Below, one piece after another: positions 9,130-61,703 of a DNA stretch of 64,000 nucleotides (the first letter of the stretch is position 1; every line of letters starts with the position of its first letter). The translations under genes were made by a program, and so were the position numbers. The notes under the pieces were generated by a model. The model ran no database searches. It was not told the origin of the DNA and saw only the letters and a list, made by a program, of their open reading frames with translations. The stretch is from Eledone cirrhosa (Eukaryota): contig OZ024741.1 in the NCBI GenBank assembly GCA_964016885.1, forward strand, positions 295,616,001 to 295,680,000, read 5' to 3'.

Positions 9130-12100
9130 ATTGTGTGGTTGATGGTGGTGGTGTTGGTAGTGGTGTTGTGGTTAGTGGAGGTGGTGTGGTGTGGTTGATG
9201 GTGGTGGTGGTGTTGGTAGTGGTGTTGTGGTTAGTGAAGGTGGTGTGGTGTGGTTGATGGTGGTGGTGGTGTTGGTAGTGGTGTTGTGGTTAGTGGAGGT
9301 GGTGTGGTGTGGTTGATGGTGGTGGTGTTGGTAGTGGTGTTGTGGTTAGTGGAGGTGGTGTGGTGTGGTTGATGGTGGTGGTGTTGGTAGTGGTCTTGTG
9401 GTTAGTGGAGGTGGTGTGGTGTGGTTGATGGTGGTGGTGTTGGTAGTAGTTTTGTGGTTAGTGGAGGTGGTGTGGTGTGGTTGATGGTGGTGGTGTTGGT
9501 AGTGGTGTTGTGGTTAGTGGAGGTGGTGTGGTGTGGTTGATGGTCGTGGTGTTGGTAGTGGTGTTGTGGTTAGTTGAGGTGGTGTGGTGTGGTTGATGGT
9601 GGTGGTGTTGGTAGTGTTGTTGTGGTTAGTGGAGGTGGTGTGGTGTGGTTGCTGGTGGTGGTGTTGGTAGTGGTGTTGTGGTTAGTGGAGGTGGTGTCGT
9701 GTGGTTGATGGTGGTGGTGGTGTTGGTAGTGGTGTTGTGGTTAGTGGAGGTGGTGTGGTGTGGTTGATGGTGGTGGTGGTGTTGGTAGTGGTGTTGTGGT
9801 TAGTGGAGGTGGTGTGGTGTGGTTGATGGTGGTGGTGTTGGTAGTGGTGTTGTGGTTAGTGGAGGTGGTGTGGTGTAGTTGATGGTGGTGGTGGTGTTGG
9901 TAGTGGTGTTGTGGTTAGTGGAGGTGGTGTGCTGTGGTTGATGGTGGTGGTGTTGGTAGTGGTGTTGTGGTTAGTGGGGGTGGTGTGGTGTGGTTGATGG
10001 TGGTGGTGGCGTTGGTAGTGGTGTTGTGGTTAGTGGAGGTGGTGTGGTGTGGTTGATGGTGGTGGTGTTGGTAGTGGTGTTGTGGTTAGTGGAGGTGGTG
10101 TGGTGTGGTTGATGGTGGTGGTGGTGTTGGTAGTGGTGTTTTGGTTAGTGGAGTTTGTGTGGTGTGGTTGTTGGTGGTGGTGGTGTTGGTAGTGGTGTTG
10201 TGGTTAGTGGAGGTGGTGTGGTGTGGTTGATGGTGGTGGTGTTGGTAGTGGTGTTGTGGTTAGTGGAGGTGGTGTGGTGTGGTTGATGGTGGCGGTGGTG
10301 TTGGTAGTGGTGTTGTGGTTAGTGGAGGTGGTGTGCTGTGGTTGATGGTGTGGTGTGGTTGATGGTGGTGGTGGTGTTGGTAGTGGTGTTGTGGTTAGTG
10401 GAGGTGGTGTGGTGTGGTTGATGGTGGTGGTGTTGGTAGTGGTGTTGTGGTTAGTGGAGGTGGTGTGGTGTGGTTGATGGTGGTGGTGGTGTTGGTAGTG
10501 GTGTTGTGGTTAGTGGAGGTGGTGTGGTGTGGTTGATGGTGGTGGTGGTGTTGGTAGTGGTGTTGTGGTTAGTGGAGGTGGTGTGGTGTGGTTGATGGTG
10601 GTGGTGGTGTTGGTAGTGGTGTTGTGGTTAGTGGAGGTGGTGTGGTGTGGTTGATGGTGGTGGTGTTGGTAGTGGTGTTGTGGTTAGTGGAGGTGGTGTG
10701 GTGTAGTTGATGGTGGTGGTGGTGTTGGTAGTGGTGTTGTGGTTAGTGGAGGTGGTGTGCTGTGGTTGATGGTGGTGGTGTTGGTAGTGGTGTTGTGGTT
10801 AGTGGGGGTGGTGTGGTGTGGTTGATGGTGGTGGTGGCGTTGGTAGTGGTGTTGTGGTTAGTGGAGGTGGTGTGGTGTGGTTGATGGTGGTGGTGGTGTT
10901 GGTAGTGGTGTTGTGGTTAGTGGAGGTGGTGTGGTGTGGTTGATGGTGGTGGTGTTGGTAGTGGTGTTGTGGTTAGTGGAGGTGGTGTGCTGTGGTTGAT
11001 GGTGGTGGTGTTGGTAGTGGTGTTGTGGTTAGTGGAGGTGGTGTGGTGTGGTTGATGGTGGTGGTGGTGTTGGTAGTGGTGTTGTGGTTAGTGAAGGTGG
11101 TGTGGTGTGGTTGATGGTGGTGGTGGTGTTGGTAGTGGTGTTGTGGTTAGTGGAGGTGGTGTGGTGTGGTTGATGGTGGTGGTGGTGTTGGTAGTGGTGT
11201 TGTGGTTAGTGAAGGTGGTGTGGTGTGGTTGATGGTGGTGGTGGTGTTGGTAGTGGTGTTGTGGTTAGTGGAGGTGGTGTGGTGTGGTTGATGGTGGTGG
11301 TGTTGGTAGTGGTGTTGTGGTTAGTGGAGGTGGTGTGGTGTGGTTGATGGTGGTGGTGGTGTTGGTAGTGGTGTTGTGGTTAGTGGAGGTGGTGTCGTGT
11401 GGTTGATGGTGGTGGTGGTGTTGGTAGTGGTGTTGTGGTTAGTGGAGGTGGTGTGGTGTGGTTGATGGTGGTGGTGGTGTTGGTAGTGGTGTTGTGGTTA
11501 GTGGAGGTGGTGTGGTGTGGTTGATGGTGGTGGTGTTGGTAGTGGTGTTGTGGTTAGTGGAGGTGGTGTGGTGTAGTTGATGGTGGTGGTGGTGTTGGTA
11601 GTGGTGTTGTGGTTAGTGGAGGTGGTGTGCTGTGGTTGATGGTGGTGGTGTTGGTAGTGGTGTTGTGGTTAGTGGGGGTGGTGTGGTGTGGTTGATGGTG
11701 GTGGTGGCGTTGGTAGTGGTGTTGTGGTTAGTGGAGGTGGTGTGGTGTGGTTGATGGTGGTGGTGGTGTTGGTAGTGGTGTTGTGGTTAGTGGAGGTGGT
11801 GTGGTGTGGTTGATGGTGGTGGTGTTGGTAGTGGTGTTGTGGTTAGTGGAGGTGGTGTGCTGTGGTTGATGGTGGTGGTGTTGGTAGTGGTGTTGTGGTT
11901 AGTGGAGGTGGTGTGGTGAGGTTGATGGTGGTGGTGGTGTTGGTAGTGGTGTTTTGGTTAGTGGAGTTTGTGTGGTGTGGTTGATGGTGGTGGTGGTGTT
12001 GGTAGTGGTGTTGTGGTTAGTGGAGGTGGTGTGGCTGATGGTGGCGGTGGTGTTGGTAGAGGTGTTGTGGTTAGTGGAGGTGGTGTGCTGTGGTTGATGG

Positions 12101-15100
12101 TGGTGGTGGTGTTGGTAGTGGTGTTGTGGTTAGTGGAGGTGGTGTGGTGTGGTTGATGGTGGTGGTGGCGTTGGTAGAGGTGTTGTGGTTAGTGGAGGTG
12201 GTGTGGTGTGGTTGATGGTGGTGGTGTTGGTAGTGGTGTTGTGGTTAGTGGAGGTAGTGTGGTGTGGTTGATGGTGGTGGTGTTGGTAGTGGTCTTGTGG
12301 TTAGTGGATGTGGTGTGGTGTGGTTGATGGTGGTGGTGTTGGTAGTGGTGTTGTGGTTAGTGGAGGTGGTGTGGTGTGGTTGATGGTGGTGGTGTTGGTA
12401 GTGGTGTTGTGGTTAGTGGAGGTGGTGTGGTGTGGTTGATGGTGGTGGTGTTGGTAGTGTTGTTGTGGTTAGTAGAGGTGGTGTGGTGTGGTTGATGGTG
12501 GTGGTGTTGGTAGTGGTGTTGTGGTTAGTGGAGGTGGTGTGGTGTGGTTGATGGTGGTGGTGTTGGTAGTGGTCTTGTGGTTAGTGGAGGTGGTGTGGTG
12601 TGGTTGATGGTGGTGGTGTTGGTAGTAGTTTTGTGGTTAGTGGAGGTGGTGTCGTGTGGTTGATGGTGGTGGTGTTGGTAGTGGTGTTGTGGTTAGTGGA
12701 GGTGGTGTGGTGTGGTTGATGGTGGTGGTGTTGGTAGTGGTGTTGTGGTTAGTTGAGGTGGTGTGGTGTGGTTGACGGTGGTGGTGTTGGTAGTGTTGTT
12801 GTGGTTAGTGGAGGTGGTGTGGTATGGTTGCTGGTGGTGGTGTTGGTAGTGGTGTTGTGGTTAGTGGAGGTGGTGTCGTGTGGTTGATGGTGGTGGTGGT
12901 GTTGGTAGTGGTGTTGTGGTTAGTGGAGGTGGTGTGGTGTGGTTGATGGTGGTGGTGGTGTTGGTAGTGGTGTTGTGGTTAGTGGAGGTGGTGTGGTGTG
13001 GTTGATGGTGGTGGTGTTGGTAGTGGTGTTGTGGTTAGTGGAGGTGGTGTGGTGTAGTTGATGGTGGTGGTGGTGTTGGTAGTGGTGTTGTGGTTAGTGG
13101 AGGTGGTGTGCTGTGGTTGATGGTGGTGGTGTTGGTAGTGGTGTTGTGGTTAGTGGGGGTGGTGTGGTGTGGTTGATGGTGGTGGTGGCGTTGGTAGTGG
13201 TGTTGTGGTTAGTGGAGGTGGTGTGGTGTGGTTGATGGTGGTGGTGTTGGTAGTGGTGTTGTGGTTAGTGGAGGTGGTGTGGTGTGGTTGATGGTGGTGG
13301 TGGTGTTGGTAGTGGTGTTGTGGTTAGTGAAGGTGGTGTGGTGTGGTTGATGGTGGTGGTGGTGTTGGTAGTGGTGTTGTGGTTAGTGGAGGTGGTGTGG
13401 TGTGGTTGATGGTGGTGGTGGTGTTGGTAGTGGTGTTGTGGTTAGTGAAGGTGGTGTGGTGTGGTTGATGGTGGTGGTGGTGTTGGTAGTGGTGTTGTGG
13501 TTAGTGGAGGTGGTGTGGTGTGGTTGATGGTGGTGGTGTTGGTAGTGGTGTTGTGGTTAGTGGAGGTGGTGTGGTGTGGTTGATGGTGGTGGTGGTGTTG
13601 GTAGTGGTGTTGTGGTTAGTGGAGGTGGTGTCGTGTGGTTGATGGTGGTGGTGGTGTTGGTAGTGGTGTTGTGGTTAGTGGAGGTGGTGTGGTGTGGTTG
13701 ATGGTGGTGGTGGTGTTGGTAGTGGTGTTGTGGTTAGTGGAGGTGGTGTGGTGTGGTTGATGGTGGTGGTGTTGGTAGTGGTGTTGTGGTTAGTGGAGGT
13801 GGTGTGGTGTAGTTGATGGTGGTGGTGGTGTTGGTAGTGGTGTTGTGGTTAGTGGAGGTGGTGTGCTGTGGTTGATGGTGGTGGTGTTGGTAGTGGTGTT
13901 GTGGTTAGTGGGGGTGGTGTGGTGTGGTTGATGGTGGTGGTGGCGTTGGTAGTGGTGTTGTGGTTAGTGGAGGTGGTGTGGTGTGGTTGATGGTGGTGGT
14001 GGTGTTGGTAGTGGTGTTGTGGTTAGTGGAGGTGGTGTGGTGTGGTTGATGGTGGTGGTGTTGGTAGTGGTGTTGTGGTTAGTGGAGGTGGTGTGCTGTG
14101 GTTGATGGTGGTGGTGTTGGTAGTGGTGTTGTGGTTAGTGGAGGTGGTGTGGTGAGGTTGATGGTGGTGGTGGTGTTGGTAGTGGTGTTGTGGTTAGTGG
14201 AGGTTGTGTGGTGTGGTTGATGGTGGTGGTGGTGTTGGTAGTGGTGTTGTGGTTAGTGGAGGTGGTGTGGCTGATGGTGGCGGTGGTGTTGGTAGAGGTG
14301 TTGTGGTTAGTGGAGGTGGTGTGCTGTGGTTGATGGTGGTGGTGGTGTTGGTAGTGGTGTTGTGGTTAGTGGAGGTGGTGTGGTGTGGTTGATGGTGGTG
14401 GTGGCGTTGGTAGAGGTGTTGTGGTTAGTGGAGGTGGTGTGGTGTGGTTGATGGTGGTGGTGTTGGTAGTGGTGTTGTGGTTAGTGGAGGTAGTGTGGTG
14501 TGGTTGATGGTGGTGGTGTTGGTAGTGGTCTTGTGGTTAGTGGATGTGGTGTGGTGTGGTTGATGGTGGTGGTGTTGGTAGTGGTGTTGTGGTTAGTGGA
14601 GGTGGTGTGGTGTGGTTGATGGTGGTGGTGTTGGTAGTGGTGTTGTGGTTAGTGGAGGTGGTGTGGTGTGGTTGATGGTGGTGGTGTTGGTAGTGTTGTT
14701 GTGGTTAGTAGAGGTGGTGTGGTGTGGTTGATGGTGGTGGTGTTGGTAGTGGTGTTGTGGTTAGTGGAGGTGGTGTGGTGTGGTTGATGGTGGTGGTGTT
14801 GGTAGTGGTGTTGTGGTTAGTGGAGGTAGTGTGGTGTGGTTGATGGTGGTGGTGTTGGTAGTGGTCTTGTGGTTAGTGGAGGTGGTGTGGTGTGGTTGAT
14901 TGTGGTGGTGTTGGTAGTAGTTTTGTGGTTAGTGGAGGTGGTGTGGTGTGGTTGATGGTGGTGGTGTTGGTAGTGGTGTTGTGGTTAGTTGAGGTGGTGT
15001 GGTGTGGTTGATGGTGGTGGTGTTGGTAGTGTTGTTGTGGTTAGTGGAGGTGGTGTGGTGTGGTTGCTGGTGGTGGTGTTGGTAGTGGTGTTGTGGTTAG

Positions 15101-16075
15101 TGGAGGTGGTGTGGTGTGGTTGATGGTGGTGGTGTTGGTAGTGGTGTTGTGGTTAGTGGAGGTGGTGTGGTGTGGTTGATGGTGGTGGTGGTGTTGGTAG
15201 AGGTGTTGTGGTTAGTGGAGGTGGTGTGGTGTGGTTGATGGTGGTGGTGGTGTTGGTAGAGGTGTTGTGGTTAGTGAAGGTGGTGTGGTGTGGTTGATGG
15301 TGGTGGTGGTGTTGGTAGAGGTGTTGTGGTTAGTGGAGGTGGTGTGGTGTGGTTGATGGTGGTGGTGGTGTTGGTAGAGGTGTTGTGGTTAGTGAAGGTG
15401 GTGTGGTGTGGTTGATGGTGGTGGTGGTGTTGGTAGTGGTGTTGTGGTTAGTGGAGGTGGTGTGGTGTGGTTGATGGTGGTGGTGTTGGTAGTGTTGTGG
15501 TTAGTGGAGGTGGTGTGGTGTGGTTGATGGTGGTGGTGTTGGTAGTGGTGTTGTGGTTAGTGGAGGTGGTGTGGTGTGGTCGATGGTGGTGGTGGTGTTG
15601 GTAGAGGTGTTGTGGTTAGTGGAGGTGGTGTGGTGTGGTTGATGGTGGTGGTGTTGGTAGTGGTGTTGTGGTTAGTGGAGGTGGTGTGGTGTGGTTGATG
15701 GTGGTGGTGGTGTTGGTAGTGGTGTTGTGGTTAGTGGAGGTGGTGTGCTGTGGTTGATGGTGGTGGTGTTGGTAGTGGTGTTGTGGTTAGTGGAGGTGGT
15801 GTGGTGTGGTTGATGGTGGTGGTGGTGTTGGTAGTGGTGTTGTGGTTAGTGGAGGTGGTGTGGTGTGGTTGATGGTGGTGGTGGTGTTGGTAGAGGCGTT
15901 GTGGTTAGTGGAGGTGGTGTGGTTGATGGTGGTGGTGTTGGTAGTGGTGTTATGGTTAGTGGAGGTGGTGTGGTGTGGTTGATGGTGGTGGTGGTGTTGG
16001 TAGTGGTGTTGTGGTTAGTGGAGGTGGTGTGGTGTGGTTGATGGTGGTGGTGGTGTTGGTAGATGTGTTGTGGGT
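9130..16075. repeat. GT-rich minisatellite, 56/59-bp unit, roughly 120 copies
   Basis: Unit ggttgat(ggt)3-4gttggtagtggtgttgtggttagtggaggtggtgtggtgt. Confidence 0.95.
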
Positions 16076-57484: not shown

Positions 57485-57561
57485 GTTTTGCGAGGTTTTT
57501 GATATGAAATCGTGTGTCGAAACAAATATTGTTATTACACAAATATGACCCTCCCCAAGTA

Positions 57562-57637
<76 letters not shown>

Positions 57638-57705
57638 CAAGGTTTAGCAAATAAGAAAAAGTTTCAAAATAAATTTAAAAAAATGAACTTTACTTACTAT
57701 GGTTA

Positions 57706-57789
57706 CCTTTACCGAATCGGTTTCGAGTCTCAAAAACAAACGGACAGTCCATACGGCATCCATTGCAAAGATAAACTCTCGTCAGAAGG
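57706..57789 (-). ncRNA. Type I hammerhead ribozyme, canonical core
   Basis: Minus strand: cctt-CTGACGA-gagttt...agactc-GAAA-ccg-att-cgg-TA-aagg; G10.1-C11.1; GUA site. Confidence 0.85.
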
Positions 57790-58190
57790 ATCCTTCCACT
57801 CGGAGAACATAAAATTCCCGAGTTCAAACCACGAACTGGCGCTATTCAAAATTGTTCCCGAGATGAGAATAAATGAAGTGGAAGCAATTCCTTCAAGTGC
57901 CGTTTGTAAAGATAGAAGCAAAGGCAGGGAGGTCAGTCTGCCCCCGCTATAACTAGCAGCAGTCAGAACGACCAAATTTTTTCTCAACCAAGAGGAGCAT
58001 AATAATAATAAAGTATATGTCCCTACATGCACAAGGCGCTAAGGGACACATGTATTGTCCAACCATATGCCAATGTGGTTCAATGGCAGGTTAATAAATT
58101 AACGAGCCAGAACATATATAATCAAGGTTTAGCAAATAAGAAAAAGTTTCAAAATAAATTTTTAAAAATGAACTTTACTTACTATGGTTA

Positions 58191-58274
58191 CCTTTACCGA
58201 TTCGGTTTCGAGTCTCAAAAACAAACGGACAGTCCATACGGCATCCATTGCAAAGACAAACTCTCGTCAGAAGG
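58191..58274 (-). ncRNA. Type I hammerhead ribozyme, tandem copy
   Basis: Same fold 485 nt away; the differences fall in loop III (aat vs att) and distal stem/loop II. Confidence 0.85.
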
Positions 58275-58568
58275 ATCCTTTCACTCGGAGAACATAAAAT
58301 TCCCGAGTTCAAACCACGAACTGGCGCTATTCAAAATTGTTCCTGAGATGAAAATAAATGAATCGGTAAAGGTAACCATAGTAAGTAAAGTTAATTTTTT
58401 TAAATTTATTTTGAAACTTTTTCTTATTTGCTAAACCTTGATTATATATGTTCTGGCTCGTTAATTTATTAACCTGCCATTGAACCACATTGGCATATGG
58501 TTGGACAATACATGTGTCCCTAAGCGCCTTGTGCGTGTAGGGACATATACTTTATTATTATTATTATT

Positions 58569-58638
<70 letters not shown>

Positions 58639-58847
58639 TATATATATTTATTATATATATATTATATATATGTATATATAATATATATATTATATATATA
58701 CGTTATATATATATGTTATATATATATATTATATATATTTATATATATATATTATATATATTTTATATATATATATTATATATATATTATATATATAAGG
58801 TGAAACAATTGTTCTCAGTATAGGGAACTAACTGTTGTGTTACTACT

Positions 58848-58924
<77 letters not shown>

Positions 58925-58927
<3 letters not shown>

Positions 58928-60231
58928 GGTGCGGACGATATTTGTTCGCAAGATTACTGTCTAGGAAATAATAACACAGTAGTTTTATTTTTTAAGATTT
59001 ATTTATCAAACTTGGGTCAGTTTGTCTTCGTGACTGGTTCTTTCGATCTCACTCGATAAACCCGCCATTGGCTTTGATGACGGCCTCAAGGCGGCCTCGG
59101 AACCAGCTACAGGCCTTCGTCACTGTCCCCCGACTTAGGCCCCTAAAGGCACTTGTGATCCTGGCTTTCAGATCATCTTTCGTATTGCAACTAGATCTGT
59201 TGGTGTCTCGTTCCACTGCACTCCACACAAAGAAGTCGAGGGGGTTGCAGTCAGGCGAGCTGGGAGGCCAGATGTCAGGTGAAGTGTGGTCGACGAAGTT
59301 CTCTGACAGCCAGGCTTGGGTCTTTCGGCTGGTATAGCAGAGCGCTGAGTCTTGCTGCCACACGTACGGCCTACCTGCAGCTACCTGGTCGAATCAGGCC
59401 TTTACTACCTTGCTCAGAATGCGGATGTAGCCATCGGTGTTCAGCTTGAGGCCCTCAGGGAAGAAGTGAGGTGGCATGACGTCACCTTGACTGCTGACGA
59501 CACCTAAGACCAATGTTGTCGCTGGAAACTTTGTCTGCATGACTCTGGGCACGTCTTTGGATGAGACAGCGAGCCACCTGTTGTTCTGGAAGTCGATCTT
59601 CTGGTCTTAGCAGAAGTTTTTCTCGTCGGAGGAAAACCACAGCATGTCTGGCTCCAGTGGGTGTTTCAACTTGTTGATCAGCTTCTTTGCGTGCTTCAGT
59701 CGCTTTTCTTGCTTCGCCTTTGACAGAAATTGTCCTTTCCTCATCTTGTATGAAACGTAGCGAATGTCTTCATGTACCACCAGCCTAATGAGCTTTTCAT
59801 CCACGCCTTTCTCCCTTGCAATGGCACGCATCGACTTGCTAGGTTCATTGTTGATGATTTCCTGAACTTCAGCGACGAACTCGGGCGTTCTGAAGGCGTC
59901 AGATCGTCGATCATGTGTTTTCCTCTCTGATGTTGCTTCATAGTCGAATCCTGAATCTTCCAATTCGTTTCTGAATTTTTCCACCATTCTCCTGCTGACG
60001 CTGAGAAAGTCTGAAATTTCCTTATTTGTCCTCCCGGCACGGATTCCAAGAAGAACTCTGTGTCTCTTCCACAAATTTGGAGGTTCAAAATTATTCATAA
60101 TCAATTATTCTGAAAATAAATAATGTAAATATAGTCACTGTTTTTATGAAGACAAGAGTGACAACGGAAGTAAAAAAAATTTGCATAAAATTAGCAGTTG
60201 AAAATTGCGAACAAATATCGTCCACACCCTG
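58925..60231 (-). mobile_element. Full-length Tc1/mariner transposon, DD37D (maT) type
   Basis: 27-bp TIRs CAGGGTG(C/T)GGACGATATTTGTTCGCAA and TA duplication on both sides. Confidence 0.93.
59049..60098 (-). pseudogene. DD37D transposase, 350 codons in one frame with two premature stops
   Basis: HTH N-terminus, SDEK, QQDSA, WPPSSPDCNPLD (37 residues between the 2nd and 3rd D); TAA at 59607-59609 and TGA at 59394-59396. Confidence 0.9.
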
Positions 60232-61475: not shown

Positions 61476-61540
61476 TATTTCATTATACATATTTCAGGGA
61501 TACCAAATTAAATTATGGTATGCCTTCATCAGACAAAATA
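61476..61540 (-). ncRNA. Minimal type I hammerhead ribozyme (inverted copy)
   Basis: Reverse complement of 61639-61703. Confidence 0.75.
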
Positions 61541-61638
61541 CAATATATAACAGTTTTACAAATAAGATGGCTCCCAAAAATAATGGTTGCATTTTAAAAG
61601 GGTACGTCAAAACTTATTTGTAAAACTGTTATATATTG

Positions 61639-61703
61639 TATTTTGTCTGATGAAGGCATACCATAATTTAATTTGGTATCCCTGAAATATGTATAATGAA
61701 ATA
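61639..61703 (+). ncRNA. Minimal type I hammerhead ribozyme
   Basis: tattttgt-CTGATGA-aggcatacca/tggtatccct-GAAA-tatgta-TA-atgaaata. 8-bp stem I with 2 GU pairs; self-complementary stem III AUAUGUAU. Confidence 0.75.

Follow-up and report, generated by a model that had tools for sequence, protein, structure and literature searches.

A probable non-LTR retrozyme with PLE-type insertion anatomy and long-helix-II hammerheads in the genome of Eledone cirrhosa

Two hammerhead ribozymes (HHRs) standing in tandem within a non-coding repeat of Eledone cirrhosa raise the question of what kind of element carries them, how it was copied, and whether its transcripts would be cut into unit-length RNAs. 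The repeat, here called element B, lies in a window of 64,000 nt (assembly GCA_964016885.1, contig OZ024741.1, positions 295,616,001 to 295,680,000), in which all coordinates are numbered from the first letter. A structure scan of both window strands identified two type I HHRs on the minus strand, HHR1 at 58191-58274 and HHR2 at 57706-57789, with predicted cleavage after GUA at 58195 and 57710, respectively, and scissile bonds 485 nt apart. Both have the type I core (CUGANGA / GAAA / UH), three helices and an open helix I; the CUGACGA core segments are at 58270 and 57785. Each HHR has a helix I of 4 bp, a proximal helix II of 6 bp closing a 42-nt insert, GAAA, and helix III. In HHR1, helix I is formed by 58274-58271 and 58194-58191, and the core occupies 58270-58264 and 58209-58206. 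The long, two-part helix II, delimited by covariation and predicted folds, spans 58210-58263 (57725-57778 in HHR2), and comprises the 6-bp proximal stem, a pyrimidine-rich internal loop, and a distal stem capped by a GNRA-type loop. A canonical terminal loop 2 is lacking close to the core, and the internal loop is only a candidate for the loop 1-loop 2 tertiary contact. The near-palindromic helix III of HHR1 (58196-58206) is the exact reverse complement of that of HHR2 (57711-57721). The first-pass annotation had described two canonical tandem hammerheads with perfect cores. The scan agrees on both motifs, their cores and the 485-nt spacing, but their size is not canonical, with a helix II of ~54 nt, and Rfam hammerhead models gave no match in element B at the gathering threshold or at E<=5, probably on account of the long helix II.

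With 58362-57878 taken as unit positions 1-485, the minus strand carries one full 485-nt non-coding repeat unit (57878-58362) followed by a second, partial unit (positions 1-249; 57629-57877), which forms a pseudo-LTR-like (pLTR-like) direct repeat and ends at the main fixed 3' end of the family. The direct repeats (57629-57877 and 58114-58362) are 249 nt long, are 97% identical, and are separated by only 236 nt; no RT + GIY-YIG ORF is present between them. The earlier observation that copy differences avoid the core is borne out, as the 7 differences spare every conserved core base; the helix III loop contains one of them (58201 A vs 57716 T), and another borders helix II (58257). Absent from the first-pass annotation were a 205-nt inverted arm on the plus strand (58360-58564; unit about 161-364) and the (TA)n flanks. 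The arm is 98% complementary to 57999-58203, covers the first cleavage site, and ends at the second fixed end of the family (the 'tail'). The locus thus reads inverted arm, full unit, and then unit 1-249, with a tandem part of only 1.5 units. As read from the flank sequence, a (TA)n target microsatellite adjoins the 249 end (57566-57635) and a (TA)n-rich tract adjoins the tail end of the inverted arm (58572-58924); because both flanks are (TA)n, no target-site duplication is readable. Divergence within the copy is 2.9% between units and 2.5% for the arm, and the two units have 3 private variants in common; the copy is not among the youngest, and L032, L060 and L023 are at 0-1%. Outside the element, 57488-57565 holds the end of another short repeat adjoining the (TA)n tract, similar sequence flanking the B copy in L055, and a minus-strand stretch adjoining the other (TA)n tract (58930-59200) looks to us like part of a Tc1/mariner transposon, comprising its C-terminal end and a terminal repeat.

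The genome copy survey that the first-pass annotation had proposed as a check, covering 3.0 Gb (G000), returned 634 exact matches to a 26-mer from the 3' half of the HHR (reversed control, 0) and 1,386 to a 26-mer from the 3' end (control, 0). Allowing 30-60 nt for helix II, a loose core pattern, in which the core is fixed by construction, identified 4,597 HHRs genome-wide (control, 3). With genome counts far above the controls, the HHR motifs of element B are not due to chance. Additionally, a DNA search gave 2,512 candidates, 40 of which were scored, and 20 divergent members of the superfamily consist of homologous non-coding units with a repeat spacing of ~470-485 nt where they are tandem. 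The longest arrays reach 3.5-4 units (L027 and L198), and two HHRs occur in one arm at only 8 of 75 loci chosen by their 3'-end pattern. GC content is under 50%. No RNA run was listed among the datasets containing the sequence, and four contig sets of unrecorded kind, all from one study, contain the family without ends, strand or level; both results are neutral on expression. One array (L186; G000:C1:30664000-30669000) contains four superfamily HHRs spaced by 485, 335 and 297 nt, corresponding to internally deleted units.

Comparative analyses of the 75 loci, which were picked only by a 3'-end 27-mer and represent related rather than independent copies, inflating the Fisher p, indicate that the ribozyme is under selection at the family level. 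Core columns vary in 38 of 1149 cases (3.3%) and helix III stem columns in 3.4%, relative to 2193 of 27463 (8.0%) elsewhere. Pairing across 63 distinct helix types reaches 84% in helix I (shuffled partners: mean 71%, maximum 76%) and likewise 84% in proximal helix II (mean 66%, maximum 73%), both exceeding all 1,000 partner shuffles, and HHR regions have 69% average column identity across subfamilies. Among 93 segments, the distal helix II pair 116-137 is U-A in 60, C-G in 22 and U-G in 5, and the helix II insert of most types folds as a pyrimidine-rich internal loop and then a second stem. The retrozyme-type arrangement proposed in the first-pass annotation is supported in the family by tandem units, covarying helices, and stronger conservation of the core than of the remaining sequence. 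A short-helix-II pattern (5-29 nt) with the same helix III has 24 genome matches (control, 4), most of which resemble deletion derivatives; none of the five cases inspected lies beside a PLE ORF. Adjacent to the ribozyme, a candidate splice-donor-like GTAAGT (minus strand, 58177-58182) begins 13 nt after the cleavage site. The donor-like GT[AG][AG] is kept across subfamilies, being present after the cleavage site in 127 of 138 contexts, and a TTCTGG block ~70 nt past it follows AG in 7 contexts and TG in 55. The donor-like/acceptor-like pair may be a relic of a PLE 5' intron, the acceptor position reading TG in the element B family.

Dimeric folding through the near-palindromic helix III, suggested initially from the two copies in the window, is backed by palindromic helices III across the family. 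Perfect palindromes occur in three independent forms, with the centres AT, CG and TA in 9, 5 and 5 of 138 contexts, and a weak palindromic helix III is described as a dimer signature for metazoan HHRs in the accessible text of PMC4209133 and PMC3088659. The helices III of HHR1 and HHR2 are predicted to form an 11-bp duplex of -17.5 kcal/mol, relative to -2.0 as a hairpin; their exact complementarity is probably due to one chance substitution, since that helix III variant occurs in only 3 of 138 contexts. In a 723-nt precursor, the predicted energies are -191.0 kcal/mol for the double hammerhead, -185.1 for two monomers, and -204.1 for the free minimum. Local fold penalties are 3.7 and 4.7 for the window copies, with a family median of 4.5 (91 copies). 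The predicted 485-nt self-excised monomer (minus strand, 57710-58194), delimited by the cleavage-site positions, has a fold stability of z = -3.34, with none of 100 shuffles as stable. When the inverted arm is added, the predicted fold drops from -204 to -471 kcal/mol, and because the arm is complementary to the first cleavage site, the first ribozyme is predicted to be blocked in read-through transcripts. On this folding model, a 485-nt monomer from the element B copy would need a transcription start inside unit 1-88, and the copy may be silent or half-blocked. Cleavage in vitro was reported for only 1 of 9 predicted retrozyme dimers tested (Li, Clavereau & Pollet, bioRxiv 10.64898/2026.07.22.740005, accessible text), which is a sober prior for any single copy. 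Divergent RT-PCR alone would not be proof of a circle, whose junction has the same sequence as a genomic tandem.

How the copies were inserted can be read from their ends. Among 119 arms (75 loci), 71 have their 3' end at unit 246-252 and 34 at 349-364, of which 68 and 32, respectively, run into (TA)n (100/105 overall); 5' ends are scattered, with variable truncation. Arms are present on both strands at 34 loci, and 28 of these have one end of each kind. A pattern of tandem and inverted copies with a tail, together with a (TA)n bias, is described for EN+ PLEs in the accessible part of PMC8557442. The family copies show this PLE insertion anatomy: fixed 3' ends, 5' truncation, inversions with a tail, and a microsatellite target.

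The same ends constrain the template. The two fixed ends fall at AU-rich positions within the unit. They lie 81 and ~190 nt downstream of the scissile bond, so that cDNA primed at either would almost immediately fall off a cleaved linear monomer. Nonetheless, 90 of the 119 arms pass through the scissile bond. Genome-wide, 11 5' ends fall at unit 167-169, no excess relative to 15 at 161-163 and 47 at 178-180 (counts not normalised; the downstream control catches more subfamilies and an ATA microhomology), and these 11 include one match from another repeat family and one internal change. A local excess at unit 163-175 (10/91 vs 5.6 expected, p 0.04), in a test that omitted 28 of 119 arms because their 3' ends were non-standard, their identity was below 84%, or they started at 12-13 (reflecting divergent subfamilies), is unconfirmed by the genome-wide counts; similarly, the run-off signal of junctions compatible with unit 168-169 is not upheld genome-wide. 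Because arms cross the scissile bond and 5' ends do not pile up there, the templates were continuous, either ligated circles, as proposed in the accessible text of PMC4209133 and PMC7229834, or uncleaved multimers. Agreement at subfamily-diagnostic sites (38 columns) is 91% for tandem and 89% for inverted pairs within a locus, relative to 52% between loci, which fits one template lineage, as expected, and does not separate circle from multimer. A comparison of within-locus with nearest-other-locus distance (within smaller in only 12/66 tandem and 2/31 inverted pairs) was dropped because a minimum over ~250 segments is biased, and the diagnostic-site concordance replaced it.

Overall, element B is best explained, with good probability, as one insertion of a non-LTR retrozyme, or non-autonomous PLE, from a high-copy family of non-coding tandem units, each with a type I HHR, that are likely PLE-copied into (TA)n microsatellites and predicted to self-cut into units; cleavage and circle formation by the family are plausible predictions. 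A tandem copy would be transcribed on the HHR strand, and neighbouring HHRs would fold, probably as a double hammerhead via the palindromic helix III, and then cleave. The released monomer could be ligated by a host ligase; RtcB ligation in vitro has been shown for mussel and axolotl retrozymes, according to the accessible text of PMC7229834. A PLE GIY-YIG would nick (TA)n, and the nicked strands would prime reverse transcription at unit 249 and about 358, both internal AU-rich RNA sites. The RT would then pass through the ribozyme junction to give up to ~3.5 units, and the inverted form, as at element B, would result when two primings join at the truncated ends. More tentatively, and less likely than not, this ~4,600-copy superfamily has a distinct hammerhead architecture, in which the pyrimidine-rich internal loop of helix II is a working module, for helix I docking or for binding of a PLE RT or host protein. 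Replication would run through a ligated 485-nt circle primed at the two AU-rich sites, and the insertions, if this is true, would preserve in the genome a trace of rolling-circle reverse transcription by PLE enzymes.

On the template we lean only slightly towards a circle over an uncleaved multimer, and it is possible, though rather less probable than the retrozyme explanation as a whole, that the family is a non-autonomous PLE copied from uncleaved multimeric transcripts, no monomer circle accumulating. The HHR would then trim the 5' end of some transcripts or cleave rarely, and tandems would arise by template jumps of the PLE RT. The lack of run-off at the scissile bond, the weak helix III and unfavourable global fold, and the poor in vitro cleavage of metazoan PLE HHRs in the accessible text of PMC4209133 would all suit such transcripts, as would the differences between units inside a locus (~4% on average, with 9-11% of diagnostic sites disagreeing). 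However, the canonical C3-G8 core and the helices I and II that covary across subfamilies imply selection for catalysis, and 3-4-unit arrays persist despite constant 5' truncation. Template continuity across the ribozyme site leaves a two-way test between circle and uncleaved multimer.

The remaining explanations concern the origin of the tandem itself. Among the traits of element B, four are those of PLEs (a pLTR-like direct repeat, an inversion, a tail and a (TA)n target), and the donor-/acceptor-like pair ~70 nt apart recalls a short PLE 5' intron; element B could be the truncated pLTR end of an ordinary autonomous PLE, with the HHR pair as a by-product of tandem insertion. This is improbable and largely refuted for the family, in which the repeat closes head-to-tail with a period of ~470-487 nt at many loci, no arm among the 119 (75 loci; flanks outside the ORF scan) is longer than 1,038 nt, and no PLE ORF lies beside the HHRs of the 20 divergent superfamily members. 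Still more remote is a satellite with relic ribozymes, amplified locally by unequal crossover: it would account for the tandem arrangement and for the 3 private variants common to the two units of element B, yet family copies are short (at most ~4 units) and dispersed over many chromosomes, and their fixed 3' ends, random 5' ends and inversions are built anew at each locus.

No autonomous partner was identified among the PLE loci compared with the unit. RT + GIY-YIG PLEs are abundant in the genome, with 10,596 GIY-YIG PLE candidates listed, of which 150 were scored. Among four long PLE frames, Pfam identified RVT_1 + GIY-YIG in three and RVT_1 only in the fourth; several genomic PLEs carry a cysteine-rich linker, which we take to be Neptune-type. 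Blastn of the unit against 70 GIY-YIG loci (30 + 20 + 20) gave only short matches and no homologous pLTR, the best two being inside a different short repeat, antisense to the HHR of that repeat, and tblastx of the unit against 70 PLE-ORF loci was empty. A long-helix HHR unit upstream of an ORF in L101 is a separate insert and is not linked to the ORF. The PLE at L092:272-8001 (G000:C1:145868500-145876500, minus strand) is near-intact, 4,976 nt long and possibly young, with 750-nt pLTRs that are 99% identical and end in (TA)n, a 938-aa open RT + GIY-YIG frame, and a shifted N-terminal part ahead of it. It has a U3-A8-type HHR-like motif in which helix I and the following bases are the same as in element B, and a weak 44-nt likeness to element B (3/300 shuffles, best of 20 comparisons) that is a lead only. 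Near the start of the unit (about 20-50; window 58315-58345), a GGCGC box beside TTTGAA, situated 45-70 nt upstream of the HHR, presumably resembles cell-cycle promoter elements and is a possible internal promoter; an 11-nt stretch in the same part of the unit is common to the L092 pLTR in opposite orientation. Six other PLEs (L061, L064, L085, L108, L109 and L084) carry HHR-like motifs 3' of GIY-YIG. The cores of these motifs are of the U3/A8 kind and their helix III reads CCGG; one motif has GCAA in place of GAAA, and the PLE families have two alternative ends into (TA)n.

Comparison with known systems indicates that the kind of element is already known and is not a new class, and that the ribozyme form is a variant with an unusually long helix II. 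Metazoan non-LTR retrozymes have been described in coral, mussel and axolotl (Cervera & de la Pena 2020, PMC7229834). As far as the accessible text of that paper goes, element B resembles them in its non-coding tandems, in which each unit has a type I HHR with a canonical core, in a GC content below 50% and the lack of an LTR, in a weak palindromic helix III that favours dimers, in a copy number in the thousands, and in sharing its genome with PLEs. It differs in its unit of 485 nt relative to ~170-400 nt, its two-part helix II of ~54 nt relative to ~4 bp, and its short arrays; circRNA, which is only predicted for element B, has been demonstrated for those retrozymes. At 485 nt the unit falls within the range of 51-972 bp given by Li, Clavereau & Pollet (bioRxiv 10.64898/2026.07.22.740005), and, by the accessible text of that preprint, two consecutive units with complete HHRs make element B a 'putatively active retrozyme' that co-occurs with EN+ PLEs, as theirs do. 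In the preprint, the retrozyme-PLE link consists of co-occurrence and vertebrate pLTR homology; for element B it consists of insertion anatomy, with no homologous pLTR found. Like EN+ PLEs of Neptune/Poseidon type (PMC4209133 and PMC8557442, accessible text), element B has partial tandems, 5' truncation, an inverted arm, a tail at one end, a (TA)n target, and a sense-strand HHR near the 3' end; unlike them, it has no ORF, and its tail is ~110 nt relative to 30-40. Its HHR also departs from the minimal form, having a 3-bp helix III and a long helix II, whereas the ORF-bearing PLEs examined in the same genome have short or U3-A8-type motifs. No report of this long-helix-II family was found in the literature searched, which apart from the cited papers was covered by listings and abstracts, although the supplements of the retrozyme papers could hold a similar one, and the word 'ribozyme' is absent from the main text of an octopus repeat annotation (PMC13282606). 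Dependence of retrozymes on PLEs has hitherto been proposed from co-occurrence and pLTR likeness, and the element B family provides a more direct and unusually clear footprint, all features of its insertions being those of PLE integration. As the long-helix-II form escapes Rfam, similar invertebrate families may be under-counted, and thousands of natural variants are available for probing the role of the helix II extension.

Long helices II are also present in other, unrelated families of the genome. For instance, L101 (174-1506, and about 500-1000 from the far end) contains another non-coding repeat whose HHR has a long helix II (~50 nt) and a helix III that is palindromic, with a donor-like motif 13 nt past the cleavage site. 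Within the window, a second, unrelated type I HHR family is present as an inverted pair at 61484-61695 (minus strand, 61532; plus strand, 61647), between (TA)n tracts, with an 8-bp helix I and a 30-nt helix II; it has relatives in L101, L208, L216 and L219, and at L018 and L020 its 3' end lies beside B copies. The window also contains two strand-skewed satellites, one at 9134-16073 with ~120 copies of a 59-nt unit, and one at 20051-49649 with ~800 copies of a 37-nt unit and 95% matches.
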